29,954 bases of DNA from assembly GCA_031459535.1 (NCBI GenBank), contig JAVKIJ010000035.1, positions 1 to 29,954 on the forward strand, written 5' to 3'. Made by a program: the position numbers and the translations under genes. Origin of the DNA: Candidatus Fervidifonticultor quintus. GTDB lineage: Bacteria; Sysuimicrobiota; Sysuimicrobiia; Sysuimicrobiales; Humicultoraceae. This document shows, piece by piece, positions 1 to 19,510 of this stretch (the first letter of the stretch is position 1; the number at the start of each line of letters is the position of its first letter). The notes under the pieces are model-generated. The model ran no database searches and was not told where the DNA came from. It worked only from the letters and a program-made list of their open reading frames with translations.

Positions 1-893
1 TGGCCGCCCTGCCCAGGTCCATCGCCATTCTGGGCGCCGGGGCCATCGGGGTGGAGTTCGCCAGCCTGTTTGGGGCGCTGGGCAGCGAGGTGACCCTCAT
101 CGAGCTGCTGCCGACGCTGCTCCCGCTGGAGGACCAGGAGATCGGCAAGACGCTGGAGCGGCTGTTCGTGCGCAGGGGCGTGAAAGTACACACCGGTGCC
201 ACCGCCACGTCGGTCACGGTTCGGGGTGACGGCGTAACTCTCGCAGTGGCTTCCGGCGAGGAACAGGTAACCGTTGATGCCGAGTACCTGCTGATCGCGG
301 TGGGCCGCGGACCGCTCAGCGAGGGGCTGGGGCTCGAGGAGGTGGGCGTGGCCACCGAGCGCGGTGCCGTCACCGTCGACGCCCACTTCCGCACGACGAT
401 TCCCAACATCTTCGCCGTGGGAGACGTCATCGGCGGGCCGTACCGGCTCGCACACGTGGCCGCCGATGAGGCCGTCCATGCCGTGGAGACCATGGCGGGG
501 GCCGAGGCTGTCCCCATGAACTACATGGCCGTGCCGCGGCCCACGTTTTCCATCCCGCAGGTGGCGACCATGGGGTTGTCGGAGGAGCAGGCCGCCGCCC
601 AGGGGTACACCGTCCGGGTAGGCCGCTTCAACTTCGCCGCCAACGGCAAGGCCGCCATCGAGGGCGAGCGCGACGGGTTCGTGAAGATCGTCACCGACGG
701 CCGCACCGGGGAGATTCTGGGCATCCACATGATCGGCCCCATGGTGACCGAGCTGCTGGCCGAGGGCGTCGTGACCAAGTATATTGAAGGCACCGTGGCC
801 GAACTGGGGACGTCGGTCCACGCGCATCCCACGCTGTCGGAAGCCATGAAGCAGGCGGCCCTGGACGCCATGGGAAGGGTGCTGGACGCGTAG
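1..893 (+). CDS. lpdA: Dihydrolipoamide dehydrogenase (E3), 5'-truncated by the window edge
   Basis: Frame is open from position 3 (AALPRSIAILGAGAIGVEFA, NAD-binding motif). Contains AVGD and the C-terminal HAHPTLSE catalytic motif. Precedes E1/E2 genes. Confidence 0.95.
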   Translation, partial: AALPRSIAILGAGAIGVEFASLFGALGSEVTLIELLPTLLPLEDQEIGKTLERLFVRRGVKVHTGATATSVTVRGDGVTLAVASGEEQVTVDAEYLLIAVGRGPLSEGLGLEEVGVATERGAVTVDAHFRTTIPNIFAVGDVIGGPYRLAHVAADEAVHAVETMAGAEAVPMNYMAVPRPTFSIPQVATMGLSEEQAAAQGYTVRVGRFNFAANGKAAIEGERDGFVKIVTDGRTGEILGIHMIGPMVTELLAEGVVTKYIEGTVAELGTSVHAHPTLSEAMKQAALDAMGRVLDA

Positions 894-937
894 CGGGCAT
901 CGAGGCGCCAGGGCCGGATCCTTGGGGGCGGGATTCA

Positions 938-1954
938 ATGGCGGCACGAGAGATGCAGGTCCACGCAGCGCGGCACGAGGCGCTGGGGCTCTCTGCAGAC
1001 GATCTGCTGGAGATGTACTACCGCATCGCGCTGGCCCGGGCCATTGATGAGCGCATGTGGGTCCTCCAGCGCGCCGGCTTGGTGCCATTCGTCATCTCAG
1101 GGCAGGGGCACGAGGGCGCGCAGGTCGGCGTGATGTGGGCCACCGACCGGACGCGGGACTGGTTCGTGCCGTACTACCGGTCGCTGGCGGCGGTCCTGGT
1201 CCAGGGCATGACCGCCCGGGAGTTGATGCTGGGGCTGTTCGCCCGCGCCGCCGACCCCAGCAGTGGCGGCCGGCAGATGCCGGCCCACTGGGGGCATAAC
1301 GGCCGGCGAATCTTTACCACCAGCAGCCCGGTGGCCACCCAGTACCTGCATGCTGTTGGCATCGCCTACGCGGCCAAGCTGCGCGGGACCGGAGAGCTGG
1401 TCGTCACCTCGATGGGCGAGGGGAGCACGAGCCAGGGTGACTGGCACGAGGCCATGAACTTCGCCGGCATCCACAAACTGCCCGTCATCTTCGTCGTCGA
1501 GAACAACCGGTATGCGATCTCTGTGCCGCTCCGCCTCCAGATGGCCACGGCCAGCGTGGCCGTCCGCGCCGCTGGCTACGGGTTTCCCGGTGTGATCACG
1601 GACGGTTCCGATGTGCTGGCGGTTTATGCCGAGGCGCAGGCCGCAGTGCGGCGGGCCCGGGCCGGGGAAGGCCCGACGCTCATCGAGTGCCGCGTCGAGC
1701 GCCTGACGGCCCACTCCTCCGAGGACCGCCAGGAGAAGTATCGGCCGACCGCCGATCTGGAAGCGTCGCGGAGCAAAGACCCGCTGGTGGTCTTCAAGCA
1801 CTATCTGGAACAGGCAGGGCTGCTGGACGAGGCCCGATACGTGGAGATTCACGCCAGGATCAGGGCCGAGGTCAACGACGCCACGGAGTACGCCGAGTCG
1901 CAGCCGATGCCCGACCCGGCCACCGTGGCGCGCCACGTCTATTTCGAGGGCTAG
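938..1954 (+). CDS. bkdA1: 2-oxoacid dehydrogenase E1 alpha, probably branched-chain (BkdAA-like)
   Basis: FVISGQGHE, DPSSGGRQMPAHWG, TPP motif GEGSTSQGD...NN and HSSED loop resemble Bacillus BCKDH E1a. Confidence 0.88.
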   Translation: MAAREMQVHAARHEALGLSADDLLEMYYRIALARAIDERMWVLQRAGLVPFVISGQGHEGAQVGVMWATDRTRDWFVPYYRSLAAVLVQGMTARELMLGLFARAADPSSGGRQMPAHWGHNGRRIFTTSSPVATQYLHAVGIAYAAKLRGTGELVVTSMGEGSTSQGDWHEAMNFAGIHKLPVIFVVENNRYAISVPLRLQMATASVAVRAAGYGFPGVITDGSDVLAVYAEAQAAVRRARAGEGPTLIECRVERLTAHSSEDRQEKYRPTADLEASRSKDPLVVFKHYLEQAGLLDEARYVEIHARIRAEVNDATEYAESQPMPDPATVARHVYFEG

Positions 1955-1958
1955 GGCC

Positions 1959-2948
1959 ATGCCGGAGCTGCGCTACCTGGACGCGATCCGCCTGGCCATG
2001 TATGAAGAGATGCGGCGGGACCCACGGGTGCTGGTGCTCGGCGAAGACGTGGGGATCAAAGGCGGCGTCTTCGGCGCCACCGACGGCTTCTACGCCGAGT
2101 TCGGGGAGGCCCGGGTCCTGGACACGCCGCTGGCCGAGTCGTCCATTGTGGGGGTGGCGATCGGCATGGCCGCCAACGGTCTGGTGCCCGTGGCTGAGAT
2201 CCAGTTCTCCGACTTCATCCACCCCGCGTACAATCAATTGGTGAGCGAGGCCGCGCGCATTCGCTACCGGAGTAACGGTGCGTTCGCCTGTCCTCTGGTC
2301 GTCCGTGCGCCGTACGGCGGCGGCGTCGAAGTACACGGCGGCCTGTACCACTCCCAGAGCATCGAAGCTACGTTCGCCCACGTGCCGGGTCTAAAAGTCG
2401 TGACCCCGGGGACGGCGTACGACGCCAAGGGGCTGCTGAAGGCGGCCATCCGCGATCCGGACCCAGTGCTGTTCCTGGAGCACAAGCGCCTCTATCGCTC
2501 CATCCGCGGCGAGGTACCCGAAGACGACTATGTGGTGCCCATCGGCCCGGCCGCGATCCGGAGGGAGGGAACCACCCTCTCGGTCTTTGCGTACGGCCAG
2601 ATGTTGCACGAGGCCCTGCGGGCGGCGGGAGAGGTGGCCGCCGACGGCATCGATGCCGAAGTCGTGGACCTGCGGACGCTGAAGCCCCTGGATGTGGAGA
2701 CGGTCCTGGCCTCGGTGCGGAAGACCAGCAAGGCCATGGTGGTCTATGAGGACAACCGGTTCCTGGGATTTGGGGCCGAGGTCGCAGCTCTCATCGCCGA
2801 AGAGGCGTTCGACGCCCTGGACGGGCCCGTTGTCCGTGTGGCGGGCCTGGACGTGCCGGCGGTGCCATATGCCGACACCCTGGCCGCCGCCTTCATGCCC
2901 AGTGCCGCCAAGATCGCCGACGCCATGAGGCGCCTGGCAGCCTATTGA
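1959..2948 (+). CDS. bkdA2: 2-oxoacid dehydrogenase E1 beta
   Basis: GEDVG.KGGVF, DTPLAES, AEIQFSDF, HGGLYHSQS, FLEHK, DLRTLKPLD. Confidence 0.9.
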   Translation: MPELRYLDAIRLAMYEEMRRDPRVLVLGEDVGIKGGVFGATDGFYAEFGEARVLDTPLAESSIVGVAIGMAANGLVPVAEIQFSDFIHPAYNQLVSEAARIRYRSNGAFACPLVVRAPYGGGVEVHGGLYHSQSIEATFAHVPGLKVVTPGTAYDAKGLLKAAIRDPDPVLFLEHKRLYRSIRGEVPEDDYVVPIGPAAIRREGTTLSVFAYGQMLHEALRAAGEVAADGIDAEVVDLRTLKPLDVETVLASVRKTSKAMVVYEDNRFLGFGAEVAALIAEEAFDALDGPVVRVAGLDVPAVPYADTLAAAFMPSAAKIADAMRRLAAY

Positions 2949-2965
2949 GGTGTCGTGAGCCTACC

Positions 2966-4123
2966 ATGCCGGTCGAGATCAGGCTTCCCCAACTCGGCGA
3001 GAGCATCCACGAGGGCACGGTGGCTCGGTGGCTCAAGCGGCCAGGTGATCGCGTGGAGAAGTATGAGCCGTTGGCCGAGATCACTACGGACAAGGTCAAT
3101 GTGGAGATGCCGTCGCCACTGGCCGGTGTGCTGGTCGAGCTGCTCGTGCCCGAGGGCGAGACGCGGCCGGTCGGGGCGCCCATCGCGCTCATCGAGACCG
3201 GGGCGTCGCCGGAGACGGCAGGAATCGGCGAAGCCCCCGCGGCCCAAGGCACCGTGCCCGTCGTGGCTCCTGCAGTGCGGCCCCCTGCGCGAGTGCGTCT
3301 GTCACCGCTGGTCCGCAAGCTGGCAGAGGAGCACGGCCTGCCGGAGAGCGTGCTGGAGACGCTGACCGGCAGCGGCGCTGGTGGCCGCATCACCAAGGAC
3401 GACGTGCTGCGTTACCTGGCCTCCGCCGGCCGGGCGGGGGAGGAAGTGGTGAAGCTCTCCCCGATTCGCCGCACCATCGCCCAGCGCATGGCCCAGAGCA
3501 AGCGCGAGATTCCCCACGCCTACGGCGTGATCGAGGTGGACATGCAGGCGGTGGTGGCCTGGCGAGAGGCGCACAAGGAGGCGTGGCGTGCCCGGGAAGG
3601 GGCGCCGCTCACCTACACGGCGTTTTTCGTGCGGGCAGCCTGCGAGGCGCTGCGGGCCCACCCGATCGTGAACTCGTCGTGGACCGACGAGGGCATCCTG
3701 GTGCGCAAGCGGATCAACATCGGCATCGGGATCGCCGTCCCCGACGGGCTGGTGGTGCCGGTCATCCGCCACGCGGATCAGCTGAGCCTGGCCGGCGTGG
3801 CCCGCGCCCTGGACGATTTGACGGCGCGGGCCCGGGCGGGGCGTCTGGGTCTCGACGACATCCAGGGTGGCACCTTCACCATCACCAACCCGGGCGTCTT
3901 CGGGTCGATCTGGTCCATGCCGATCATCCTGCCCGGGCAGGCCGCGATCCTGGCCACCGATGCCATCATCAAGCGGGCCGTGGTGCGAGATGATGCCATC
4001 GCCATCCGACCCATCATGCACCTGGGGCTCTCGTTCGATCACCGAATCTTCGATGGCGCGACCGCCATGCAGTTCCTCAATGTCATGAAGGCATGGTTCG
4101 AGGATTACCGCGATGGCCGTTGA
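2966..4123 (+). CDS. bkdB: Dihydrolipoamide acyltransferase E2 with one lipoyl domain
   Basis: ATG at 2966. Lipoyl motif TDKVNVE, E3-binding SPLVRKLA...GSGAGGRITKDD, catalytic GTFTITN and DHRIFDG. Confidence 0.9.
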   Translation: MPVEIRLPQLGESIHEGTVARWLKRPGDRVEKYEPLAEITTDKVNVEMPSPLAGVLVELLVPEGETRPVGAPIALIETGASPETAGIGEAPAAQGTVPVVAPAVRPPARVRLSPLVRKLAEEHGLPESVLETLTGSGAGGRITKDDVLRYLASAGRAGEEVVKLSPIRRTIAQRMAQSKREIPHAYGVIEVDMQAVVAWREAHKEAWRAREGAPLTYTAFFVRAACEALRAHPIVNSSWTDEGILVRKRINIGIGIAVPDGLVVPVIRHADQLSLAGVARALDDLTARARAGRLGLDDIQGGTFTITNPGVFGSIWSMPIILPGQAAILATDAIIKRAVVRDDAIAIRPIMHLGLSFDHRIFDGATAMQFLNVMKAWFEDYRDGR

Positions 4124-5012
4124 CACCCGCCGCCCGGAGTGGTTGAAGGTTCGCCTGCCGTACGGGCCCAACTACGTGGATCTCAAGGATATCATGCGCG
4201 ACCACCAGATGCACACGGTGTGCGAGGAGGCGCGCTGCCCCAACATCGGCGAGTGCTGGGATCGCCGGACCGCCACGTTTCTGATCCTGGGGAACGTGTG
4301 CACGCGCACGTGCCGCTACTGCGCCATCGCCCACGGCCTGCCCAGCGAGCTGGACCTCCAAGAACCGCAGCGCGTGGCCGACGCGGCCGTCGCCATGGGG
4401 CTGCGGCACGTGGTGATCACCTCGGTCAACCGGGACGACCAGGCCGATGGCGGTGCTGCCATCTACGCCGAGACCATCCGCCAGATTCACTGCCGCCTCC
4501 CGGCGTGCACCGTCGAGGTGCTCGTTCCAGACTTCAAGGGTGATCCCCACAGCCTGCGCGTGGTGCTCGAGGCCAACCCAGAGATCCTCGGGCACAACAT
4601 CGAGAGCCCGCGGCGGGTGTTCAAGATCGTCCGTCACGGCGGCAACTACGACCGCTCTCTGGAACTGCTCCGGCGGTCGAAGGAGTGGGGTTACACCTCC
4701 TTCACGAAGAGCGGCATCATCCTGGGGATGGGCGAGACCACAGACGAGGTGCTCGAGACGATGGACGATCTGCGGGCCGTGGATGTGGACGTCCTCACGC
4801 TGGGACAGTACCTGCGGCCCGGGCCCGACTATCACCCAATCGACCGGTACTACACCCCAGACGAGTTCGCCTACTTGAAGGCCCAAGGCCTCCGTCGCGG
4901 CTTCAAGTACGTGGAGTCCGGGCCGCTGGTGCGATCCTCATACCGCGCCGACATCCAGGCGCAGGCCGTGCGCGCCTACCGCGCGCGGTTCGGCGCCAAT
5001 CCCCAGACCTAG
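4113..5012 (+). CDS. lipA: Lipoyl synthase (radical SAM)
   Basis: CEEARCPNIGEC auxiliary-cluster motif, CTRTCRYC radical SAM motif, C-terminal RSSY. Confidence 0.97.
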   Translation: MAVDTRRPEWLKVRLPYGPNYVDLKDIMRDHQMHTVCEEARCPNIGECWDRRTATFLILGNVCTRTCRYCAIAHGLPSELDLQEPQRVADAAVAMGLRHVVITSVNRDDQADGGAAIYAETIRQIHCRLPACTVEVLVPDFKGDPHSLRVVLEANPEILGHNIESPRRVFKIVRHGGNYDRSLELLRRSKEWGYTSFTKSGIILGMGETTDEVLETMDDLRAVDVDVLTLGQYLRPGPDYHPIDRYYTPDEFAYLKAQGLRRGFKYVESGPLVRSSYRADIQAQAVRAYRARFGANPQT

Positions 5013-6091: not shown

Positions 6092-6142
6092 ATGATAGCA
6101 TCCGGCAGTCTTGTTGACACCTGCCAGAGGCCGTGGCAGTTT
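6092..6142. promoter_or_regulatory. Candidate overlapping divergent sigma70-type promoters
   Basis: + strand: TTGACA (6114-6119), N17, CAGTTT with an upstream TG, toward moeB. - strand: TGcTATCAT extended -10 (6100-6092) toward the FNR gene. Confidence 0.55.
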
Positions 6143-6192
6143 GGGAATATGGCCGTCGGGCGGGCCGTCGCATTGCAATAGGGGGATCGGGC

Positions 6193-7371
6193 ATGGCTGT
6201 GGGGATTCAGCACGACGCGGCGCCGCTGCTCAGCAAGGACCAGCTCACCCGCTACTCGCGCCAGGTGATCCTGGAAGAAGTAGGGGTAGGCGGGCAACGC
6301 CGCCTGCTGGAAGGCAAGGTGCTGGTCGTCGGCGCCGGCGGGCTCGGTTCGCCGTCCTCGCTCTACCTGGCCGCGGCAGGTGTGGGACGCCTCGGCATCG
6401 TGGACGGCGACCGGGTGGAGCTCTCCAATTTGCACCGGCAGATCCTCCACTTTACCCATGACATCGGTCGCCCCAAGACCCAGTCGGCGCGCCGCACGCT
6501 CGAAGACGTGAACCCGGACGTCACCGTGGTCCCCTACCAGACCACGCTGACCTCGGAGAACGCCCTGGAGATCATCGAGCCCTACGACGTGGTGGTAAAC
6601 GGCAGCGACAACTTCCCCACCCGTTACCTGGTCAACGATGCGTGCGTCATGCTGGGCAAGCCCCTGGTGGACGCCAGCATCCTCAAGTGGGAGGGACAGG
6701 CGACCACATTCGTGCCCGGCCGGGGGTGCTACCGCTGCCTGTTCCCCACCCCGCCACCGCCCGGATCGGTTCCGTCCTGCGCGGAAGGCGGCGTGATCGG
6801 CGCCGTGGCCGGGTTCATGGGTTCACTGCAGGCCATCGAGGCCCTCAAGATCCTGCTGGGGGCGGGCCAGACGTTGGTCAACAGACTCCTCATCGTCGAT
6901 CTGTTGGCCGGCGAGGTGCGCGCGTTGCGCTGGTACCGCAATCCGGACTGTCCGGTCTGCGGGGATCATCCCACCATTACCGCGCTCATCGACTACGAGG
7001 CCTTCTGCGGGCTGCCGTCCCGGACGCACGCGCCGGCCTCGGCCCCTTCCACCGTACCCGAGATCGACGCCGACGAGGCCAGGCGCCTGGTCGAGGGCGG
7101 CGCCCAGCTCATCGACGTGCGCGAGCCCTGGGAATGGGCCATCTCCCACATCCCGGGCGCCGTCCTGATTCCCATGGGGGACATCCCGGCTCGCACGTCG
7201 GAGATCGACCCCAACCGCCCCGTCGTCGTCCACTGCGCCATCGGCGCGCGGAGTGCTAAGGTGGTGGAGACGCTGCTGCGGGCGGGCTACACCAGGGTCT
7301 TCAACCTCGCCGGTGGCATTCTTGAGTGGGCGAACCGGCAATTCCCGACGGAGAGCGGCGACCGGCACTAG
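6193..7371 (+). CDS. moeB: MoeB/MoeZ-type sulfur-carrier adenylyltransferase with C-terminal rhodanese
   Basis: RYSRQ, GAGGLGS, DGDRVELSNLHRQ, DNFPTRY, CYRC and CPVC Zn pairs, PSCAEGG, rhodanese DVREPWE...HCAIGARS. Confidence 0.93.
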   Translation: MAVGIQHDAAPLLSKDQLTRYSRQVILEEVGVGGQRRLLEGKVLVVGAGGLGSPSSLYLAAAGVGRLGIVDGDRVELSNLHRQILHFTHDIGRPKTQSARRTLEDVNPDVTVVPYQTTLTSENALEIIEPYDVVVNGSDNFPTRYLVNDACVMLGKPLVDASILKWEGQATTFVPGRGCYRCLFPTPPPPGSVPSCAEGGVIGAVAGFMGSLQAIEALKILLGAGQTLVNRLLIVDLLAGEVRALRWYRNPDCPVCGDHPTITALIDYEAFCGLPSRTHAPASAPSTVPEIDADEARRLVEGGAQLIDVREPWEWAISHIPGAVLIPMGDIPARTSEIDPNRPVVVHCAIGARSAKVVETLLRAGYTRVFNLAGGILEWANRQFPTESGDRH

Positions 7372-7390
7372 CGCCGTCCGCAAAGCCAGC

Positions 7391-8425
7391 ATGCGACAAG
7401 CCATCTTGCGAGGACCTCGGGAGCTCGACCTGATCGAGCTCCCGGTCCCCACCCCAGGACCGGGCGAAGTGGTGGTCCGCATTCGAGCGGCCCTCACCTG
7501 CGGGACCGATCTCAAGACCTATCGCCGTGGGCACCCTCGGCTGGCGTTCGGGCCGTTCGGGCATGAAGGGACCGGGGACATCGCCAGCGTCGGCGAAGGG
7601 GTGGACGGCTTCGGCCCAGGCGAGCCCGTAGTCTTCGTCCCCACCGCAGGCTGCCAGCGGTGCGAGGCATGCCGGCGCGGGCGCGATAATCTGTGCGAGA
7701 CGCAGTTCGAGGAGATCGCACTCGGGGCCTACGGCGATTACCTGCGGCTGCCTCCCCGCATCGTGCGGCAGCACCTGTTTCCCAAGCCAGCGCGGCTCTC
7801 GTACATCGAAGCGGCGTTCCTCGAGCCGCTGGCGTGCGTCGTGCACGGTTGGTCGCGCCTGGGGGCCCCGGACCGGGGAGTCGTGGCCGTGGTGGGCCTG
7901 GGGCCCATCGGGTTGCTCCACCTCCAAGAGGCGCGGCGTCGCGGGCTCCAGGCGATCGCCGTCGGACGCCGGGCCGAGGCGCTGGCGCGGGCCCGCCAGG
8001 CGGGCGCCCACGCGGTGGTCAACGCCGCGGAAACCGACGTCGGCGCGGCGCTGCGCGGACTGACAGGCAGCGGGCCCGATGTGGTCATCGAGTGCACGGG
8101 CTCCCTGGACATCTGGCGCGCTGCTCCCGAATGGGCAGCCCCGGGCGGCCGGGTCCTGCTGTTCGGCGGCCTCCCCGGCGGCAGCGAGCCCGGGTTCGAT
8201 GCCACCCGTCTCCACTACAGCGAGATCGACCTGATCAGCGCCTTCCACTATCGGACCTCTGATGTCCGCGAGGCCCTGGACCTGCTCGCCGCCGGCGGCG
8301 TCAGGCCCGCCGATCTCATCACCGGGGTGCGGTCGCTCTCGGGCATCCGGGAGGTCTTCCACGACCTGGACCGCGGCGCCGGCCTCAAGTATGGCGTGCT
8401 GCCCGACGGCGACGCATGGCTATAG
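7391..8425 (+). CDS. Zn-dependent MDR dehydrogenase (sorbitol/polyol DH-like), predicted NADP(H) preference
   Basis: CGTD, GHE, CxxCxxCx7C structural Zn, LEPLAC, GLGPIG followed by VGRR. Confidence 0.88.
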   Translation: MRQAILRGPRELDLIELPVPTPGPGEVVVRIRAALTCGTDLKTYRRGHPRLAFGPFGHEGTGDIASVGEGVDGFGPGEPVVFVPTAGCQRCEACRRGRDNLCETQFEEIALGAYGDYLRLPPRIVRQHLFPKPARLSYIEAAFLEPLACVVHGWSRLGAPDRGVVAVVGLGPIGLLHLQEARRRGLQAIAVGRRAEALARARQAGAHAVVNAAETDVGAALRGLTGSGPDVVIECTGSLDIWRAAPEWAAPGGRVLLFGGLPGGSEPGFDATRLHYSEIDLISAFHYRTSDVREALDLLAAGGVRPADLITGVRSLSGIREVFHDLDRGAGLKYGVLPDGDAWL

Positions 8426-9453
8426 CTCGCCCGCACACTTCCCGGGCCGTGGTCTTCCGTGCCCCTGGCGAGCTGCGTGCGGAAGAGATCGCGCTCCCTG
8501 CGCCGGGCCCCGGCGAGTTGCTGCTGCGCATCACGGCCTGCGGGCTGTGTCCCGGCGAGGTCATGGACTGGTACATCGCCCGCAAGGCCCCCGTGGCCAT
8601 GGGTCACGAGGCCGTGGGTGTCGTGGCCGCCGGCGGCGCCGGTGCGCCGTTCGAGGTCGGTGACCGGGTGTTCGTGCACCACCATGCGCCCTGCCTCGCG
8701 TGCCGCGCATGCCGGCGCGGCGACTACGTGCACTGCGCGGCCTGGCGGTCGCGGCAGTTGATTCCGGGCGGACTGGCCACGTACGCCATCGCGGGAGCGG
8801 AGGCCGCGGCGCGGGACGCGCTGAGGCTACCCGCCGATCTGACCGACGAGGCCGCCATTTTCATCGAGCCGCTTGCCTGCGTGGTGAAGTCCGTGCGGCG
8901 GGCGCGGCTGCGACCCGAGGATCGGGTGCTCGTGCTGGGTTGTGGTGTCATGGGGCTGCTGCACCTGATGGTGCTGCGCACGCGCAGCGAGCCGTCGCTG
9001 ATCATGGCAGCGGATCGCGTCTCCGCCCGGTTGGAGGTTGCGGCGCGGTTTGCCGATGTGGTGGCCGATGTGACCGCGACCCCCCTGGATGAGGCCGTGC
9101 GGCGCGCCACCGGCGCCGACGGCGCCGACGTGGTGATCGTCGGGCCCGGGACCGTGGAGGCGCTGGAGGCTGCGGCCGGCGCCGTGGCGCCGGGCGGCAC
9201 CCTGGTGGTGTTCGCGCCCACGCCCCCGGAGGCGCGCTGGCCGCTGGATGTCCACCAGGTGTTCTTCCGGGAGACCACCATCGTCCCCACGTACTCGGCG
9301 GGCCCCGACGACGTGCGCGAGGCCGTCCGGCTCCTCGGCTGCGGACTGCCGGTGACCGAGTTGATCACCCACCGTCTGCCGCTGGACCAGGCAGCGCTGG
9401 GCTACGATCTCGTGCGGACCGCCTCAGCGCTAAAGGTTGTGGTCGTCCCGTGA
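8416..9453 (+). CDS. Zn-dependent MDR dehydrogenase (L-iditol DH-like), predicted NAD(H) preference
   Basis: CGLCPGE, GHE, HHHAPCLACRACRRGDYVHC, IEPLAC, GCGVMG followed by AADR. Confidence 0.88.
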   Translation: MAIARPHTSRAVVFRAPGELRAEEIALPAPGPGELLLRITACGLCPGEVMDWYIARKAPVAMGHEAVGVVAAGGAGAPFEVGDRVFVHHHAPCLACRACRRGDYVHCAAWRSRQLIPGGLATYAIAGAEAAARDALRLPADLTDEAAIFIEPLACVVKSVRRARLRPEDRVLVLGCGVMGLLHLMVLRTRSEPSLIMAADRVSARLEVAARFADVVADVTATPLDEAVRRATGADGADVVIVGPGTVEALEAAAGAVAPGGTLVVFAPTPPEARWPLDVHQVFFRETTIVPTYSAGPDDVREAVRLLGCGLPVTELITHRLPLDQAALGYDLVRTASALKVVVVP

Positions 9454-9893
9454 GGGGGCCGCACATCGCCCGATTCGACCCGGCGCGGTTTCGGTGGCGG
9501 GGCGTACCCGCCAAACCGTACAAGGGCGAGGCGGCGGGGCCGCTGCGGTGGAAAGGGGTGGAGCGCTTCGTGCTCGTGGGCGCATCGGGTGAACCCACCG
9601 CGTTCCACCTGCGCTACTTCGAGATCGCACCGGGCGGATTCTCGTCGTTCGAGAGGCATCGGCATGCGCACGCGGTGCTCGTGGTGCGGGGCCACGGTCG
9701 GGTGCGGTTGGGTGAGATCGAGCGGCGTGTGGGTCCGATGGACTTCGTCTACATTCCACCCCGCATGCCCCACCAGTTCAGGGCTGGCCGGGAGCCGTTT
9801 GGATTCCTCTGCCCCGTGGATGCGGTCCGCGACCGGCCGCGGCCCGCGCGGAGTGATCAGCTTGCGCGGCGTCCCAGAGGCAGGTACAATTGA
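9450..9893 (+). CDS. Cupin (TM1459 / MTXu-5P methylsulfurylase-like)
   Basis: GTGA overlap with the upstream gene. FRWxGV...YK, LRYFEIAPGGFSSFERHRHAHAV, PHQF, FGFLCPVDAVRDRP. Confidence 0.85.
   Translation: MRGPHIARFDPARFRWRGVPAKPYKGEAAGPLRWKGVERFVLVGASGEPTAFHLRYFEIAPGGFSSFERHRHAHAVLVVRGHGRVRLGEIERRVGPMDFVYIPPRMPHQFRAGREPFGFLCPVDAVRDRPRPARSDQLARRPRGRYN
9862..9890 (+). promoter_or_regulatory. Sigma70-type promoter for iscA-nfu
   Basis: TTGCGC (9862-9867), 17 bp spacer, TACAAT (9885-9890), 35 nt upstream of ATG 9926. Confidence 0.65.
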
Positions 9894-9925
9894 ACACGCA
9901 ATTGGTCAAGAATCTGGGGGGCGAC

Positions 9926-10297
9926 ATGATTACCATCACCGCTTCGGCCGCGGCCAAGCTGTCGGAGCTCATCAGGCAGCAGGATGACCCGGGAAGCCGG
10001 CTGCGGCTCTTCATCACCAAGGGTGGGTGCCACGGCTATACCTACGGCATGGCGTTCGACCCCCACCCGCGGGAAGGTGACCAGGTGGTCAGCCAGCACG
10101 GGATCGAGCTGGTCGTCGACCCGTTCAGCAGCCGACTGCTAGAGGGCGCGCAGATTGACTACGTGCAGTCGGCCTTTGGCGAGGGCTTCACGGTCCGCAA
10201 CCCGAACGCGATCGAGACCTGCGGGTGCGGGCATTCGTTCCAGAGCAGGGACCGCTCCGGCGAGCCGGACCCCTGCGATGAGGCGACGCGGCACTAG
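9926..10297 (+). CDS. iscA: A-type Fe-S carrier (IscA/SufA/ErpA, HesB family)
   Basis: ITITASAA, GGCHGYTY, IDYV...GF...NPNA..TCGCGHSF. G-rich RBS before ATG 9926. Confidence 0.93.
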   Translation: MITITASAAAKLSELIRQQDDPGSRLRLFITKGGCHGYTYGMAFDPHPREGDQVVSQHGIELVVDPFSSRLLEGAQIDYVQSAFGEGFTVRNPNAIETCGCGHSFQSRDRSGEPDPCDEATRH

Positions 10298-10314
10298 GGA
10301 CGGAGGAGAGACGA

Positions 10315-10581
10315 ATGACCGACCAGACAGGAGTGGTGCAGGAACCCGGCGCCGATCTGCGCCGGCGGGTCGAGAAAGTGCTCGATACCATCCGGCCCTA
10401 TGTGCAGGGCGACGGTGGGGACATCGAGCTCGTCGATGTCGCCGATGGGATCGTCCAACTGCGCCTAGCCGGCGCCTGCGTGGGATGCATGCACGCCATG
10501 ATGACGCTGCAGGCCGGGATCGAGCGGATGTTGAAGCAAGAAATCCCGGAGATCCGCGTGGTGGAGGCGGTCCCCTTCTAG
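10315..10581 (+). CDS. Nfu/NifU C-terminal domain Fe-S carrier
   Basis: IRPYVQGDGGDIELV...GACVGC..TL..GIE. GGAGGAG RBS. Confidence 0.93.
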   Translation: MTDQTGVVQEPGADLRRRVEKVLDTIRPYVQGDGGDIELVDVADGIVQLRLAGACVGCMHAMMTLQAGIERMLKQEIPEIRVVEAVPF

Positions 10582-10605
10582 CCGGTTTATCTCGACCGCA
10601 CGTCC

Positions 10606-10642
10606 GGGCCCCCCATGGCGCGCATGCGGGGCCCTTTCTGTT
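10606..10642 (+). terminator. Rho-independent terminator after nfu
   Basis: Stem GGGCCCC-C-CATG / CATG-C-GGGGCCC (one mismatch) with a 5-nt loop, followed by TTTCTGTT. Confidence 0.65.
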
Positions 10643-10683
10643 GGCCGCCAGGTGCGGCGGATCTTTTGAGAGGGCCGGCAGCG

Positions 10684-12141
10684 ATGACCGAGTGGACGCA
10701 CCTCCTCAAGAAGATCGATGACTACCGCTGGGAGATTCCGACGTCGTACAAGCCCGGAATGCGCGTGCCCGGTCTCATCTTTGCCGACGAGCGCATGCTG
10801 CGCACCATGGGTGAGGAGCAGGCGTTCGATCAGGTAGCCAACGTGGCGACCCTGCCCGGCATCGTGGGTCGGTCGCTGGCGATGCCGGACATTCACTGGG
10901 GCTACGGGTTCCCCGTCGGCGGCGTGGCGGCCTTCGACGTCGAGGACGGGATCATTTCGCCGGGCGGCATCGGCTTCGATGTGAACTGCGGTGTGCGCCT
11001 GTTGCGCACGGACCTGGCCGAGGCGGATGTGCTGCCCAGGCTCGAGGACCTGGTCGAGGTCCTCTTCCGCGCCGTGCCTTCGGGGGTCGGCATCGGGGGT
11101 CGTATCAAGGTCGGGATGGGCGAGATGGACAGGGTGCTGGCGGCGGGGGCGCGCTGGGCGGTCTCAGAGGGATACGGCACCGCGGCCGACCTGGAGGTGA
11201 TTGAAGCCGGGGGAGCCCTGGAGGGCGCCGATCCCGCAGCCGTGAGCCACGAAGCCAAGCAGCGCGGCCGCGGGCAGATCGGTACCCTGGGTTCGGGCAA
11301 TCACTTCCTCGAGGTCCAGCTCGTAGACCACATCTACGACCCGGCCGTCGCCCGGGCGATGGGCATCGAGGAGCGAGGGCAGGTTGTGGTCTTCATCCAC
11401 ACCGGGTCACGGGGTCTGGGCCACCAGGTGTGCACAGACTATTTGCGGATCAGCGAGCGGGTCGGTCGGCAGCACGGGATCCACCTGGTGGACCGCCAGC
11501 TGGCGTGCATGCCCCTGCGGTCGCCAGAGGGGCAGCGGTACTTCGGCGCCATGGCCGCGGCGGCGAACTTCGCCTGGGCCAACCGGCAGTTGATCACGCA
11601 CTGGGTACGGGAAGGGTTCCAGCGCGTGTTCGGGAGGTCGTGGGAACACCTGGGGATCCGGCTCGTCTACGACGTGGCGCACAACATCGGCAAGATCGAG
11701 GAGTACGAGGTGGACGGCCAGCGACGGCGGCTGTGCGTGCACCGCAAGGGCGCCACGCGTGCGTTCCCGGCGGGGCATCCGGAGGTGCCAGCCTGCTACC
11801 GCCACGTCGGCCAGCCCGTGTTCGTCCCGGGCGACATGGGACGGTACTCGTTCGTCGCGGTGGGCGCCGAAGGCGCCATGCGCGAGGCGTTCGGCTCGAC
11901 TTGCCACGGCGCCGGACGGGTGTTGGGACGCAAGGCGGCCGTTCGCGCGCTGGCCGGCCGCGATATTGCCGAGGAGCTGCGGCGTGCCGGTATCCTGGTG
12001 AGGGCGCACGACCGCAGCCTGCTCGCCGAGGAGGCTTCGACCGCGTACAAGGACGTTGCCGATGTGGTCGGCGTCTGCCATGCCGCCGGCCTGAGCCGGC
12101 GTGTGGCGCGGATGCGGCCTATCGGCGTCGTCAAGGGATAG
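10684..12141 (+). CDS. rtcB: RNA 2',3'-cyclic phosphate/5'-OH ligase RtcB, long archaeal-like form
   Basis: MPDIHWGYGFPVGGV, GFDVNCG, GTLGSGNHFLE, HTGSRG, YDVAHN, HRKGAT, PGDMG, STCHGAGR, AYKD. Confidence 0.96.
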   Translation: MTEWTHLLKKIDDYRWEIPTSYKPGMRVPGLIFADERMLRTMGEEQAFDQVANVATLPGIVGRSLAMPDIHWGYGFPVGGVAAFDVEDGIISPGGIGFDVNCGVRLLRTDLAEADVLPRLEDLVEVLFRAVPSGVGIGGRIKVGMGEMDRVLAAGARWAVSEGYGTAADLEVIEAGGALEGADPAAVSHEAKQRGRGQIGTLGSGNHFLEVQLVDHIYDPAVARAMGIEERGQVVVFIHTGSRGLGHQVCTDYLRISERVGRQHGIHLVDRQLACMPLRSPEGQRYFGAMAAAANFAWANRQLITHWVREGFQRVFGRSWEHLGIRLVYDVAHNIGKIEEYEVDGQRRRLCVHRKGATRAFPAGHPEVPACYRHVGQPVFVPGDMGRYSFVAVGAEGAMREAFGSTCHGAGRVLGRKAAVRALAGRDIAEELRRAGILVRAHDRSLLAEEASTAYKDVADVVGVCHAAGLSRRVARMRPIGVVKG

Positions 12142-12162: not shown

Positions 12163-13323
12163 GTGCAGACCCTGACCAGCGACGAACAGCGACTGCTGTA
12201 CGAGACCATGGGGGAGTTCGCAAGAACCGAGCTGCGGCCGCACGCGGCTCAGTGGGACCGCGAGGGGCGGTTTCCCACCGAACTGATCCCCCGCCTGGCG
12301 GACCTGGGTCTGCTGGGCATGACGGTCCCCGTCGAGTACGGCGGCGCGGGGCTCTCGACGCTGGCGATGGCCACCGCCATCGCCGCGCTCGCCTGGGGCG
12401 ATGGGGGCATCGCGCTGGCGGTGGCAGCGCACAACTCCCTCTGCGCCGGCCACATCGTCGCCTTCGGTGATGCGGAGCAGCGGCGTCGGTTCCTGCCGCG
12501 GCTGGCCGCCGGCGAGGCCATGGGCTGCTGGTGCCTGACCGAGCCCGGCGCGGGCAGCGATGCGGCGTCGATCGCGACCCGGGCCGAACGCCGGGGCGAG
12601 GGGTGGCGTCTCAACGGCACCAAGGCCTTCGTGACCAACGCGACAGTGGGCGGGATCTACGTGGTGATGGCGCAGACGTCTCCCGGCGCCGGCCGCACCG
12701 GCATCACCGCGTTCATCGTCGAACGAGGCACACCCGGCATGGAGATCGGCCCCAAGGAGGACAAGCTCGGCGTGCGCAGCAGCGACACCGCCGAGGTGCG
12801 CTTCGTCGACTGCGAGGTGTCCGATCGGCAGCGGCTTGGCGCGGTGGGCGAGGGGTACCGGCAGGCGATGCGGGTGCTGGAGCGCGGCCGCATTGGCATC
12901 GCTGCCATGTCGGTGGGTCTGGGGCGTGCGGCACTGGACGCCAGCATGGACTATGCGCAGCAGCGGGTGGCCTACGGTAAACCCATCGCCGAGCTCCAGG
13001 CGATTCAGTTCATGCTGGCCGACATGGCCACCGAACTGGACGCCGCCTGGCTCCTGGTGGAGCACGCCGCCCAACTGGCCGATGAAGGCGCCCCGTTCCG
13101 TCAGGAGGCTTCCATGGCCAAACTGTACGCATCGGAAGCCGCGACCCGGGCGGCGGCCCGGGCCGTGCAGATCCACGGCGGCTACGGCTTCATGAAGGCC
13201 TACCCCGTGGAACGGTTCTATCGCGATGTGAAGCTGTGTGAGATCGGCGAGGGCACCAGCGAGGTGCAGCGTGCGATCATCTCGCGGAGCATCCTGGAAG
13301 CCGCCGGGAGTGGTGGGGCGTGA
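12163..13323 (+). CDS. Acyl-CoA dehydrogenase (short/branched-chain type)
   Basis: CLTEPGAGSD, GTKAFVTN, KLGVRSSDT, GRIGIAA, IHGGYGF, EIGEGTSEVQR. AGGAGG RBS. Confidence 0.93.
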   Translation: MQTLTSDEQRLLYETMGEFARTELRPHAAQWDREGRFPTELIPRLADLGLLGMTVPVEYGGAGLSTLAMATAIAALAWGDGGIALAVAAHNSLCAGHIVAFGDAEQRRRFLPRLAAGEAMGCWCLTEPGAGSDAASIATRAERRGEGWRLNGTKAFVTNATVGGIYVVMAQTSPGAGRTGITAFIVERGTPGMEIGPKEDKLGVRSSDTAEVRFVDCEVSDRQRLGAVGEGYRQAMRVLERGRIGIAAMSVGLGRAALDASMDYAQQRVAYGKPIAELQAIQFMLADMATELDAAWLLVEHAAQLADEGAPFRQEASMAKLYASEAATRAAARAVQIHGGYGFMKAYPVERFYRDVKLCEIGEGTSEVQRAIISRSILEAAGSGGA

Positions 13324-15167
13324 GCGGTCCCAGCCACCCCTTCCTGGCCCGCATCGCCGAGCGACCGCTGGTGGCCGACGGCGCCATGGGCACCATGCTG
13401 TACGCCCGCGGCGTGTCATTCGACCACTGTTTTGAGGCTCAGAACCTGAACCGCCCCGACCTCGTCCGTGGCATCCACGCGGCCTATCTGAATGCGGGCG
13501 CCGAGCTGCTCGAGACCAACACCTTCGGCGCCAACCGCTTCAAGCTGGCCGCGTGGGGACTGGACGACCAGGTGGAAGCCATCAACGGCGCGGGCGTCCG
13601 TCTGGCCCGCGAGGCGATCGCAGTGATGGACCGCCCGGCCTGGGTTGCCGGATCCATTGGGCCGCTGGGCCGTCAGATGGCACCCATCGGCGCGCTGACC
13701 GAGGGCGAAGCCGCCGCGGCCTTTACCCAACAGGCGCAGGCCCTGGCTGGCGCCGACCTGCTCATTCTCGAGACGTTCGCCGACCTGAACGAGATGGTGA
13801 CCGCGGTGCGTGCGGTCCGGGCCGCGGTGGCGCTGCCGATCATCGCGCAGATGACCTTCGCCCAGGACGGCCGCACCCTGCTGGGTTACACGCCCGAGGA
13901 GATCGTGGCCCGCCTGGAGCCCCTGGGTGTGGCGGTCATCGGTGCCAACTGCAGCGTGGGGCCCCACGGCGTGGCCGAGGTCCTGGAACGTATGGCCGCC
14001 GTGACCCGGACTCCCCTGTCGGCGATGCCGAATGCCGGCCTGCCGGCCTACATCGGCGGCCGGTTTGCGTACATGTCGTCGCCGGCCTACATGGCCGAGC
14101 GCGCGGTCGCGCTGGTCGAGGCCGGGGTCTCCATCGTCGGCGGGTGCTGCGGCACCACGCCCGAACACATCGCGGCGATCCACCAGGCCGTCGCCGGTCG
14201 TCGGCCGGGCCGATCGCGTCCGAGGGCGACACTGGCGGCGCCGCCGCCACCGCCGCCAGCGCCTGTCAGTGAGCCTCCCAGCACGCTGGCGCAGAAGTTG
14301 GGGCGCCGGTTCGTTCTCACCGTGGAGGTCGCCCCGCCCCGGGGCGCCAACGACGCCGAGGAGCTCGAGAATTGCCGGCGGCTCCGTGCGGCGGGCGTGG
14401 ACGCGGTCGATGTATCCGACAACCCGCTGGCGCGCCTGCGGATGAGCCCGTGGGCCACCGCCGCGCGCATTCAGCGCGAGGTCGGCCTGGAGACGATCCT
14501 GCATTTCACCACCCGAGACCGCAACCTGATCCGGCTGCAGTCCGACCTGCTGGCGGTGCACGCCCTGGGGATCCGCAATGTTCTGGCGCTTCGGGGCGAT
14601 CACCCGCAGACCGGGGACTACCCACAGGCCACCGCCGTCTCCGACGTCCAGCCCTCGGGTCTGGTCCGGATGATCAAGCAGTTCAACCAGGGTCGTGATC
14701 TGGCCGGGAACGCCATCGGCGAGCCGACGCGCTTTCTCGTCGGCATCGCGCTCAACCTGGCGGCACAAGATGCGGCGCGGGAGCTGCGCGCGTTGGACCG
14801 GAAGCTGGCCGCAGGCGGGGATTTCATCTGCACCATGCCCATCTTCGATCCCGAAACCCTGCAGGCATTCCTGGCGCGCTACGGCAAGCCTCCGGTACCG
14901 TTGCTCGTGGGGATCCTGCCGTTGTATGGCGCCAGGCACGCCGAGTTCCTCCACAACGAGCTGCCCGGCATGGTGGTGCCCGATGGCATCCGGGCACAGA
15001 TGCGCGAGGCGTCCGACGGGCGCGAACTGGGGCTCCGCCTGGCCCGCGATCTGATCCAGGCAATCCGGGATCAGGCCGACGGCGCGTATCTCATTCCGTC
15101 GTTTGGCCGCTACGACCGCATCATCACCCTGGTGCGCGAGGTGCGCGCCGGGCTGCCGGCACGGTAG
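13320..15167 (+). CDS. yitJ: Bifunctional homocysteine S-methyltransferase / methylenetetrahydrofolate reductase (YitJ-like)
   Basis: N-domain DGAMGT, TNTFGAN, GANCSVG, GGCCGTTPEHI. Pro-rich linker. MTHFR domain EVAPPRG, HFTTRDRN, LRGD. Confidence 0.9.
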   Translation: MSGPSHPFLARIAERPLVADGAMGTMLYARGVSFDHCFEAQNLNRPDLVRGIHAAYLNAGAELLETNTFGANRFKLAAWGLDDQVEAINGAGVRLAREAIAVMDRPAWVAGSIGPLGRQMAPIGALTEGEAAAAFTQQAQALAGADLLILETFADLNEMVTAVRAVRAAVALPIIAQMTFAQDGRTLLGYTPEEIVARLEPLGVAVIGANCSVGPHGVAEVLERMAAVTRTPLSAMPNAGLPAYIGGRFAYMSSPAYMAERAVALVEAGVSIVGGCCGTTPEHIAAIHQAVAGRRPGRSRPRATLAAPPPPPPAPVSEPPSTLAQKLGRRFVLTVEVAPPRGANDAEELENCRRLRAAGVDAVDVSDNPLARLRMSPWATAARIQREVGLETILHFTTRDRNLIRLQSDLLAVHALGIRNVLALRGDHPQTGDYPQATAVSDVQPSGLVRMIKQFNQGRDLAGNAIGEPTRFLVGIALNLAAQDAARELRALDRKLAAGGDFICTMPIFDPETLQAFLARYGKPPVPLLVGILPLYGARHAEFLHNELPGMVVPDGIRAQMREASDGRELGLRLARDLIQAIRDQADGAYLIPSFGRYDRIITLVREVRAGLPAR

Positions 15168-18576: not shown

Positions 18577-19488
18577 ATGGTCATAGAGCGCGTCAGGCGA
18601 CCGAGTCTGGAATCGGTGCCGCTCGCGCAGGGCAAGCGCGCGCGGCTCTACCGCCTGCTCTACGAGCACGGTCCCGGGCACGGCACCATGCTCGTGCTGC
18701 CGGTGGACCAGGGCATGGAGCACGGCCCGGTGGACTTCCTGCCTAACCCGCCCAGCGAGAATCCGGACTTTCAGATCCGTCTGGCCATCGAGGGCGGGTA
18801 CTCGGCCATCGCCTTCCACTACGGCATCGCCGCCCGATACCTGGCGCCCTATGCCGGCAAGATTCCGCTGATCTTGAAGATCAACGGGAAGACCGACATC
18901 CCACCGGCGGATCGGGCGTTCTCCGGCCTGACCGGCCGCGTGGAGGACGCCGTACGCCTGGGTGCCGATGCCGTGGGCTACACCCTGTATGTGGGCTCGC
19001 CCCGGCAGGACGAAGACTTCAGGCAGCTCACCGAGGTGCGGGCCGAGTGCGATCGCTACGGCATGCCCCTCATCGTGTGGTCGTATCCCCGCGGTGAGGC
19101 CATCGAGAAGAAGGGCGGCCGCGACAGCTTGTACGCCGTGGACTACGCCGCGCGCGTGGCGACCGAGCTCGGTGCCGATGTGGTGAAGCTCAACGTCCCC
19201 ACGTTCGACCAGAAGGCCAGGGAGAGCTCGCCGAAGCCCTACAACGAGATGGTGCTCGAGTACCGGGCGGCGGTGGACAAGGTGGTGCGCAGCGCCGGGC
19301 AGACGTTCGTGCTGTTCTCCGGCGGCAGCAAGATCGGCGACCAGGACCTGCTGGAGAAGGCCCGTCTGGTCATGGAGGCCGGCGCCACAGGCCTGATCTT
19401 CGGTCGTAACATGTGGCAGCGCCCGATGGCTGACGCACTGCGGCTGACAGCGGAGATCAAGCGGTTGATGCTTGCCACGGTGGCATGA
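18577..19488 (+). CDS. Class I (DhnA/FbaB-type) aldolase, probably fructose-bisphosphate aldolase
   Basis: DQGMEHGP, KINGKT, YTLYVGS, WSYPRG, ELGADVVK (Schiff-base Lys), SGG.K, GRNMWQ. GGAGGAGG RBS. Confidence 0.88.
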   Translation: MVIERVRRPSLESVPLAQGKRARLYRLLYEHGPGHGTMLVLPVDQGMEHGPVDFLPNPPSENPDFQIRLAIEGGYSAIAFHYGIAARYLAPYAGKIPLILKINGKTDIPPADRAFSGLTGRVEDAVRLGADAVGYTLYVGSPRQDEDFRQLTEVRAECDRYGMPLIVWSYPRGEAIEKKGGRDSLYAVDYAARVATELGADVVKLNVPTFDQKARESSPKPYNEMVLEYRAAVDKVVRSAGQTFVLFSGGSKIGDQDLLEKARLVMEAGATGLIFGRNMWQRPMADALRLTAEIKRLMLATVA

Positions 19489-19510
19489 ACGTGGCGGTGC
19501 GGGGCACGAG

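Follow-up and report, generated by a model that had tools for sequence, protein, structure and literature searches.

Three adjoining genes in a 29,954-nucleotide stretch of a Candidatus Sysuimicrobiota (CSP1-3) genome may form a so far undescribed route from a by-product of S-adenosylmethionine (SAM) to DXP (1-deoxy-D-xylulose-5-phosphate) in bacteria that do not have Dxs, the usual DXP synthase. The stretch (hereafter the window) is contig C68 of the metagenome-assembled genome (MAG) of Candidatus Fervidifonticultor quintus (G000; 3.1 Mb, 88.85% complete). Two of the genes encode zinc-dependent medium-chain dehydrogenases (MDR-A and MDR-B), and the third encodes a cupin related to the methylsulfurylase of Rhodospirillum rubrum. 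We tentatively favour, at somewhat short of an even chance, the reading that this trio is a shunt from 5'-methylthioadenosine (MTA) to DXP that does without a RuBisCO-like protein (RLP): MDR-A and MDR-B would do the work of the RLP isomerase, and the cupin would make DXP. Homology of the cupin, conservation of the trio, a split in predicted cofactor use between the dehydrogenases, and the absence of Dxs in the presence of Dxr (the next enzyme to receive DXP) together make this the favoured reading. The arrangement would be a variant of a known pathway and not a new kind of system.

Architecture and conservation of the dehydrogenase-cupin trio

The first-pass annotation of the window described three translationally coupled genes for two divergent zinc dehydrogenases and a cupin, and coordinates, overlaps and Pfam domains all agree with that description (Table 1). 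MDR-A and MDR-B overlap by 10 bases (junction ATGgctaTAG, 8416-8425), and MDR-B and the cupin gene by four (GTGA, 9450-9453). The GC content at third codon positions (GC3) in the three frames is 0.81-0.87, compared to ~0.70 overall, and the neighbouring genes are alike in this respect.

By sequence, the cupin is a member of the methylsulfurylase family. A phmmer search of the PDB returned 3ibm (5.9e-30), 3kgz (2.9e-28) and 3jzv, named 'Rru_A2000' (4.9e-27; match spanning residues 12-136 of 147), and the next cupin family, TM1459, came far behind at only 4.7e-06, which bears out the type assigned in the first pass. The HxHxH, HQF and FGFLC..DA.RD columns are invariant across 19 cupin homologues and are also present in the solved chains; the residues invariant in the 19 homologues and identical in three solved chains are E68, H70, H72, H74, H108, Q109, C121, D124, R127 and D128, some of which we take to be catalytic. 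Rru_A2000 is the R. rubrum methylsulfurylase for MTXu-5P, 1-methylthio-D-xylulose-5-phosphate (PMC4334135, PMC4958253), and its Rhodopseudomonas palustris counterpart is reported to have genetic and metabolite support (PMC4334135, PMC4958253, PMC5893883). Four proteins of 526-531 residues (P0240-P0243) join a cupin to a RuBisCO_large domain, and their cupin parts are 50-54% identical to the window cupin, the same distance that separates it from dehydrogenase-linked cupins of other phyla. A quick tree built from 81 cupins nests the RLP-linked ones among the dehydrogenase-linked ones, with many inner forks open and weakly supported; it also has a separate, well-supported clade of 16 that contains second copies and cupins with no MDR-B beside them. 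No fusion of a cupin to either dehydrogenase came up in a search for longer proteins, which is weak evidence. From these comparisons, we consider it fairly probable that the window cupin functions as a methylsulfurylase.

Two further features of the cupin family were observed. Many of its stand-alone members (P0072, P0075, P0078, P0094 and others) are named 'ribulose-bisphosphate carboxylase large chain' in their source, probably through annotation transfer from cupin-RLP fusions such as P0240-P0243. Some Sysuimicrobiota genomes also carry a second cupin ~8.7 kb upstream of the trio (L049:39-1521, L065, L061) that is a member of the 16-cupin clade; it is preceded by a 324-residue protein with no Pfam family and a weak match to R2-like oxidases.

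Conservation of the trio was assessed by scanning a single genome for each species, which gave 570 confirmed cupin relatives; the best 80 loci were kept and are the basis of all counts out of 80 reported here. Genes in these loci (DNA ~70% GC) were called with a GC3-weighted caller and then clustered, and each locus was typed by blastp on the gene calls merged with a lax tblastn, with partners sought in 4.5 kb around the cupin. Chance would hardly produce this arrangement: in 62 of the 80 loci, one or both dehydrogenases have an orthologue adjoining the cupin. At least seven phylum labels are represented among these loci (Sysuimicrobiota/Armatimonadota, Bacillota, Acidobacteriota, Nitrospirota, Planctomycetota, Binatota, Chloroflexota and a Bacteroidota-labelled MAG), so that the trio is indeed conserved together, a point on which the first-pass reading depended. 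Both dehydrogenases are near the cupin in 42 loci, nearly always in the order MDR-A, MDR-B, cupin, with MDR-A two genes ahead of the cupin; MDR-B stands immediately ahead of it in 56 (the same 42, and 14 where it is alone). Another six loci have MDR-A only, four have a RuBisCO-like gene (PF00016), and 14 have neither, although four of these last sequences end close to the cupin.

The partners also co-occur in genomes where they are not neighbours. Of the genomes in which only MDR-B adjoins the cupin, five were examined and all five carry one MDR-A-like gene (39-41% identity) at another site; of those in which only MDR-A does, four of the five examined have an MDR-B orthologue (47-55% identity) elsewhere. 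Among five genomes with neither dehydrogenase beside the cupin, two had a tandem A-B pair away from it, and in a third the only match was an MDR-B-like one. The two tandem pairs, in Chloroflexota/Dehalococcoidia genomes, lie in the order sufS-sufU-sufT-MDR-A-MDR-B (L112:4032-8187, L113:3933-8084). The genes around unlinked MDR-A-like copies in Binatota and Gemmataceae (CoA-transferase, CinA, RecA, cytochrome oxidase) were uninformative.

MDR-A and MDR-B share ~32% identity, and both have the hallmarks of the polyol/threonine-dehydrogenase branch of zinc-dependent medium-chain dehydrogenases (ADH_N, ADH_zinc_N, zinc ligands and GxGxxG). In alignments, all 47 MDR-A orthologues retain the catalytic Cys, His and Glu, the EP-motif Glu and the four structural-zinc Cys; all 48 MDR-B orthologues likewise retain the His-Glu, EP Glu and four structural Cys, and 42 of the 48 the first Cys ligand. 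NCBIfam equivalogs (threonine dehydrogenase, galactitol-1-phosphate 5-dehydrogenase, IolM, idonate dehydrogenase and others) were not reached by MDR-A (112 bits) or MDR-B (116 bits), given cut-offs of 376-550. The closest solved structures are sorbitol-dehydrogenase-like for MDR-A (116-131 bits) and threonine or sorbitol dehydrogenases for MDR-B (104-107 bits). At the end of strand beta2, MDR-A orthologues have Gly (40/47) followed by Arg-Arg (37/47), and MDR-B orthologues have Asp (42/48) or Glu (6/48). By the usual beta2-end rule, MDR-A would prefer NADP(H) and MDR-B NAD(H), which is the split that a carbonyl transposition by reduction and then oxidation would use.

DXP supply and RLP genes in genomes with the trio

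Both genes that would feed MTA into the shunt, which the first pass had found absent from the window, occur in its MAG. The mtnA product scores 431 bits against TIGR00512 (cut-off 279), and MTA phosphorylase (mtnP) is represented by its N-terminal 143 residues, cut short where contig C87 ends (183 bits over 118 residues). Directly before this partial mtnP are genes for a nickel-pincer-cofactor-dependent isomerase (group 22; 481 bits, cut-off 400) and a Sir2-type deacylase (L111:2817-5452). Dxr is present at 439 bits. Dxs was found in the MAG neither by its family model nor by tblastn with a Dxs query from the same phylum, and the only Dxs-like matches were a split transketolase and E1 beta subunits.

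This pattern extends to the phylum. Among 73 Sysuimicrobiota genomes at least 85% complete, Dxs exceeded its cut-off in two, while Dxr was found in 71, mtnA in 70, the cupin in 50, an MDR-B-like gene in 55 and a RuBisCO-family gene in 11. A hand count placed the cupin and MDR-B together in 48 of these genomes and neither in 16, with the cupin alone in two and an MDR-B-like gene alone in seven; five of those seven matches stand at 39-41% identity and are probably paralogues, and one is a contig-edge fragment. Both Dxs-positive genomes are without the cupin. In the genomes that hold cupin loci, Dxs exceeded its cut-off in 8/49 and 12/29, or 20/77 distinct genomes (G029 is in both sets), and Dxr was present in 45/49. 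The first-pass annotation anticipated co-occurrence with mtn genes, and mtnA is indeed found in 46 of the 49. Many of these genomes (G001-G049) also belong to the phylum sample, so the cupin-genome and phylum counts are not independent, and the same applies to relatives. Three unpublished genomes (G014, G061 and G066) contribute one unit each to the counts and, beyond that, only locus L029.

Binatota, Blastocatellia, Limnochordales and other Bacillota MAGs are among the Dxs-less genomes outside the phylum sample that have a dehydrogenase-linked cupin. Three Binatota-type loci from Dxs-less genomes (L053:1-4542, L077:7877-10417 and L052) have the order hpnH, MDR-B, cupin, where hpnH is the hopanoid gene for adenosyl-hopene transferase (378 bits, cut-off 225). 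The sole hpnH locus annotated further, L053, has a bifunctional transaldolase/phosphoglucose isomerase gene after the cupin.

The window was said to have no RLP gene, and this holds for the whole 88.85% complete MAG, in which PF00016 had no match; the same search does find RLPs beside cupins in four other loci. A RuBisCO-family gene is present in 1/25 genomes of the window's own family and is absent in 41/49 genomes holding loci L016-L065. Conversely, MDR-A and MDR-B each had 0/4 matches at E 1e-25 in the genomes with RLP-linked cupins, three of which are close relatives (~two independent lineages), and all four of these genomes have Dxs. The predicted anti-correlation between the dehydrogenase pair and RLP appears, in a small sample, as mutual exclusion of genomes with RLP-linked and with dehydrogenase-linked cupins.

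A candidate route to DXP and its rivals

In the proposed route, MtnP and MtnA, whose genes lie at other places in the genome, would convert MTA to MTRu-1P (5-methylthio-D-ribulose-1-phosphate). MDR-A (NADPH-type) would then reduce the C2 carbonyl to give 5-methylthio-D-arabitol-1-phosphate, and MDR-B (NAD+-type) would oxidise C4 to give MTXu-5P, the compound made by the RuBisCO-like isomerase of R. rubrum. Finally, the cupin, together with a thiol co-substrate, would remove the methylthio group to release DXP and a methanethiol equivalent. The chemistry is self-consistent on paper: C2 becomes a D-arabino alcohol, C4 is oxidised and C3 is untouched, resulting in a D-threo (xylulose) product. 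As a reading, the RLP-independent shunt put forward in the first pass has passed each of its checkable predictions; the substrates of both dehydrogenases, the order and stereochemistry of the steps, and the activity of this cupin are what we infer.

The MTA-isoprenoid shunt of R. rubrum and R. palustris comprises MtnP, MtnA, a DeepYkr RLP (Rru_A1998/RPA2169) and the cupin (Rru_A2000/RPA2170). The candidate route has in common with it the cupin family, the presence of MtnP and MtnA (unlinked, as in R. rubrum) and the proposed end products, but no RLP was found, and two zinc dehydrogenases stand where the known system has its RLP gene. D-arabitol-phosphate dehydrogenase, GatD and TarJ are sugar-phosphate dehydrogenases of the same medium-chain superfamily, the first converting arabitol-1-phosphate to xylulose-5-phosphate. 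The module resembles this enzyme in fold and catalytic zinc, and the enzyme's reaction is the unsubstituted form of the proposed MDR-B step; the GatD model reaches just 68-78 bits on the two dehydrogenases (cut-off 550). The RLP works by 1,3-proton transfer, producing a 3:1 xylulose:ribulose mixture (PMC5893883), while the proposed shift would be stereospecific and driven by redox chemistry, consuming NADPH and yielding NADH. Like the Dxs route, it would deliver DXP to Dxr, though by unrelated enzymes from unrelated substrates. The dihydroxyacetone phosphate (DHAP) shunt (MtnP/MtnK, MtnA and the aldolase Ald2) has MtnP, MtnA and a ribulose-1-phosphate intermediate in common with the candidate route and also serves 5'-deoxyadenosine, but it cleaves the C5 skeleton and requires no cupin.

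Several observations weigh against the shunt. Both Dxs and the cupin are absent from 21/73 phylum genomes (Dxr is present in 20 of these, and 16 are also without MDR-B), so another, unrecognised source of DXP must exist in the phylum, and the module cannot be the sole DXP route or the sole explanation of phylum-wide Dxs absence; that absence may be unrelated to the module altogether. The module also occurs in Dxs-positive lineages (Gemmataceae of the Planctomycetota, Nitrospirota and Thermaerobacter), and eight genomes have the trio plus an unlinked RuBisCO-family gene. The expected association with mtn genes does not extend to gene neighbourhoods, as 0/80 loci have mtnA or mtnP within 10 kb of their cupin, although locus tags indicate that they are unlinked in R. 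rubrum too. In two phyla the A-B pair lies beside iron-sulfur (Fe-S) assembly genes (IscA/NifU here, SufS-SufU-SufT in Chloroflexota), a placement that could point to another role and could equally fit salvage of 5'-deoxyadenosine, a by-product of radical-SAM enzymes. The cofactor assignment follows a rule of thumb, and the substrates proposed for MDR-A and MDR-B are inferred for proteins that reach no curated equivalog. Most of the genomes, including the incomplete one under study, are MAGs.

The fate of the dehydrogenases is where the strongest rival departs from the shunt. The cupin could be a true MTXu-5P methylsulfurylase while the dehydrogenases, acting on polyols, threonine or other secondary alcohols, do a different job in the operon, such as indirect recycling of the thiol/disulfide co-substrate or action on DXP-derived or unrelated sugars, and MTXu-5P would come from an unrecognised isomerase. 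We regard this as unlikely. Both proteins do score as generic threonine/sorbitol-dehydrogenase-like enzymes, the 21 genomes without Dxs and the module show that unrecognised enzymes of DXP supply exist, and a nickel-pincer-type isomerase gene stands two genes before mtnP. Bystander dehydrogenases would, however, be hard to square with a fixed order of MDR-A, MDR-B and cupin across at least seven phylum labels, with genome-wide co-occurrence of the three even where they are unlinked, or with the lack of MDR-A/B matches in the four RLP-linked-cupin genomes, and the NADP/NAD split suits a redox-neutral two-step isomerisation.

A second rival, modelled on the DHAP shunt, would form no DXP at all: a class II aldolase would split MTRu-1P to DHAP and 2-(methylthio)acetaldehyde, the dehydrogenases would interconvert this aldehyde and 2-(methylthio)ethanol, and the cupin would free methanethiol by taking the methylthio group off the alpha-thio aldehyde. 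We find this distinctly improbable, since both dehydrogenases are of the polyol/threonine type and not the simple primary-alcohol type, and a single aldehyde reduction does not need two enzymes with opposite cofactor motifs. The MAG does encode a class II aldolase on contig C111 that belongs to no curated subfamily (165 bits for Aldolase_II; 133 for a generic aldolase model, cut-off 267; 67 for MtnB, cut-off 137), but its gene is unlinked to the trio and adjoins a creatininase-family gene and a UPF0261-like gene. The cupin chemistry would arguably require just an alpha-methylthio carbonyl, and the enzymes that convert 2-(methylthio)ethanol to methanethiol aerobically in R. palustris, including an alcohol dehydrogenase, are described as unidentified (PMC5893883). 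The resemblance of the window cupin to cupins fused to RLP, whose product is a C5 phosphate, nevertheless argues for a C5 substrate, and such a route would leave the links to hpnH and to genomes with the methylerythritol phosphate (MEP) pathway but no Dxs unexplained.

We give similarly little credence to a change of function in the cupin clade (e.g., to a metal-dependent sugar-phosphate isomerase or epimerase acting on the dehydrogenases' product, the module then being part of an unrelated pathway for a sugar or sugar alcohol): functions vary widely among cupins, this one reaches no curated NCBIfam family (best score 19 bits) and the 16-cupin clade shows that the family has diversified, but the HxHxH, HQF, FGFLC and RDRP motifs in common with Rru_A2000 do not vary among the 19 homologues, the window cupin is equally close to RLP-linked and fused cupins and to dehydrogenase-linked cupins of other phyla, and mtnA accompanies the cupin in nearly all genomes.

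The RLP-independent shunt may also be one case of a broader activity, a proposal that we advance as speculative and on balance doubtful. In Dxs-less lineages (Sysuimicrobiota, Binatota, and some Acidobacteriota, Bacillota and Chloroflexota), MDR-A and MDR-B would act as a general 'carbonyl transposase' for 5-substituted ribulose-1-phosphates, converting 5-deoxyribulose-1-phosphate derived from 5'-deoxyadenosine directly to DXP and, with the cupin, the MTA analogue as well; most or all of the DXP that goes into isoprenoids, thiamin and pyridoxal would then derive from the ribose of spent SAM. This activity would explain both the A-B pairs beside Fe-S and radical-SAM genes and the pairs without a cupin.

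Genomic surroundings and significance

Table 1 Features of the trio and its neighbourhood in the window.
Feature	Coordinates	Strand	Description
lipA	4113-5012		Near the trio
ThiF/MoeZ-type adenylyltransferase with rhodanese domain	6133..7371	+	ThiF and Rhodanese domains; ends 19 bases before MDR-A
MDR-A	7391..8425	+	344 aa; zinc-dependent medium-chain dehydrogenase, polyol/threonine-dehydrogenase-like, predicted NADP(H)-type; ADH_N and ADH_zinc_N (Pfam)
MDR-B	8416..9453	+	345 aa; second zinc-dependent medium-chain dehydrogenase, predicted NAD(H)-type; ADH_N and ADH_zinc_N (Pfam)
Cupin	9450..9893	+	147 aa, GTG start; Cupin_2 (Pfam); methylsulfurylase-family homologue
IscA/ErpA-type Fe-S carrier	9926..10297	+	Fe-S_biosyn domain; within 10 kb of the cupin in 24/80 loci
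NifU-like domain protein	10315..10581	+	NifU domain; followed by a terminator-like hairpin, 10644-10660
YitJ-type homocysteine methyltransferase/methylenetetrahydrofolate reductase gene	13320-15167		Near the trio

The ThiF/MoeZ-rhodanese gene is within 10 kb of the cupin in 30/80 loci, all of the window's phylum type, and a gene for spermidine synthase, an enzyme that makes MTA, is within the same distance in 12 loci of one Sysuimicrobiota group. The first-pass annotation cited lipA and yitJ as fitting context; both are present, but their synteny is confined to one phylum. The IscA-type gene more likely starts at 9926, with an ATG preceded by a GGGGG run, than at 9890, the TTG start of the listed open reading frame. 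A promoter and terminator scan of the window was at chance level (2 terminator-like sites, 2.4 expected) and the hairpin after the NifU-like gene is weak; an Rfam search of the window found no riboswitch or other RNA. Contigs from a metatranscriptome (run X4, of the hot-spring study to which the best DNA holders also belong) covered 27/30 bins of positions 6100-10700, and contigs of the RNA library run across the junctions A/B, B/cupin and cupin/IscA with 0-1 differences, though DNA carry-over is possible.

Two other gene groups in the window were recorded. A DeoC/LacD-family aldolase gene is followed directly by a shikimate-dehydrogenase-domain gene (18577-20626) and then a third medium-chain dehydrogenase gene (20637-21665), and the pairing of aldolase and shikimate dehydrogenase is reminiscent of the alternative, archaeal-type way into the shikimate pathway. 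A complete 2-oxoacid dehydrogenase set, made up of an E3 fragment, E1 alpha, E1 beta and E2 (positions 1-4123), lies directly before lipA. In Escherichia coli, a mutant pyruvate dehydrogenase E1 is reported to rescue loss of Dxs (bioRxiv 10.1101/2021.05.17.444423).

The source of DXP in Dxs-less bacteria has been raised before. A survey of the MEP pathway listed 181 species with all of its enzymes except Dxs, four of which have the cupin but no RLP, and left their route to DXP open (PMC10663253). The cultured thermophile Rhodothermus marinus is likewise reported to be without dxs, its DXP being of unknown origin (bioRxiv 10.1101/2021.05.17.444423); no Rhodothermus-named protein was among the matches listed for the L054 cupin (120 of 523), which is uninformative on that genome. 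We found no description of a dehydrogenase-based bypass of RLP in the literature searched, and the main text of the Sysuimicrobiota description does not mention isoprenoids, MEP, dxs or methylthioadenosine.

If the RLP-independent shunt is correct, it would provide a concrete three-enzyme hypothesis for how MEP bacteria without Dxs obtain DXP, and a clean case of non-orthologous displacement in which redox chemistry takes the place of proton-transfer isomerisation. The module is small, soluble and, by origin, thermostable, and could serve Dxs-independent terpenoid engineering. For the organisms themselves, the shunt would establish a new link between salvage of SAM by-products and the supply of isoprenoids.

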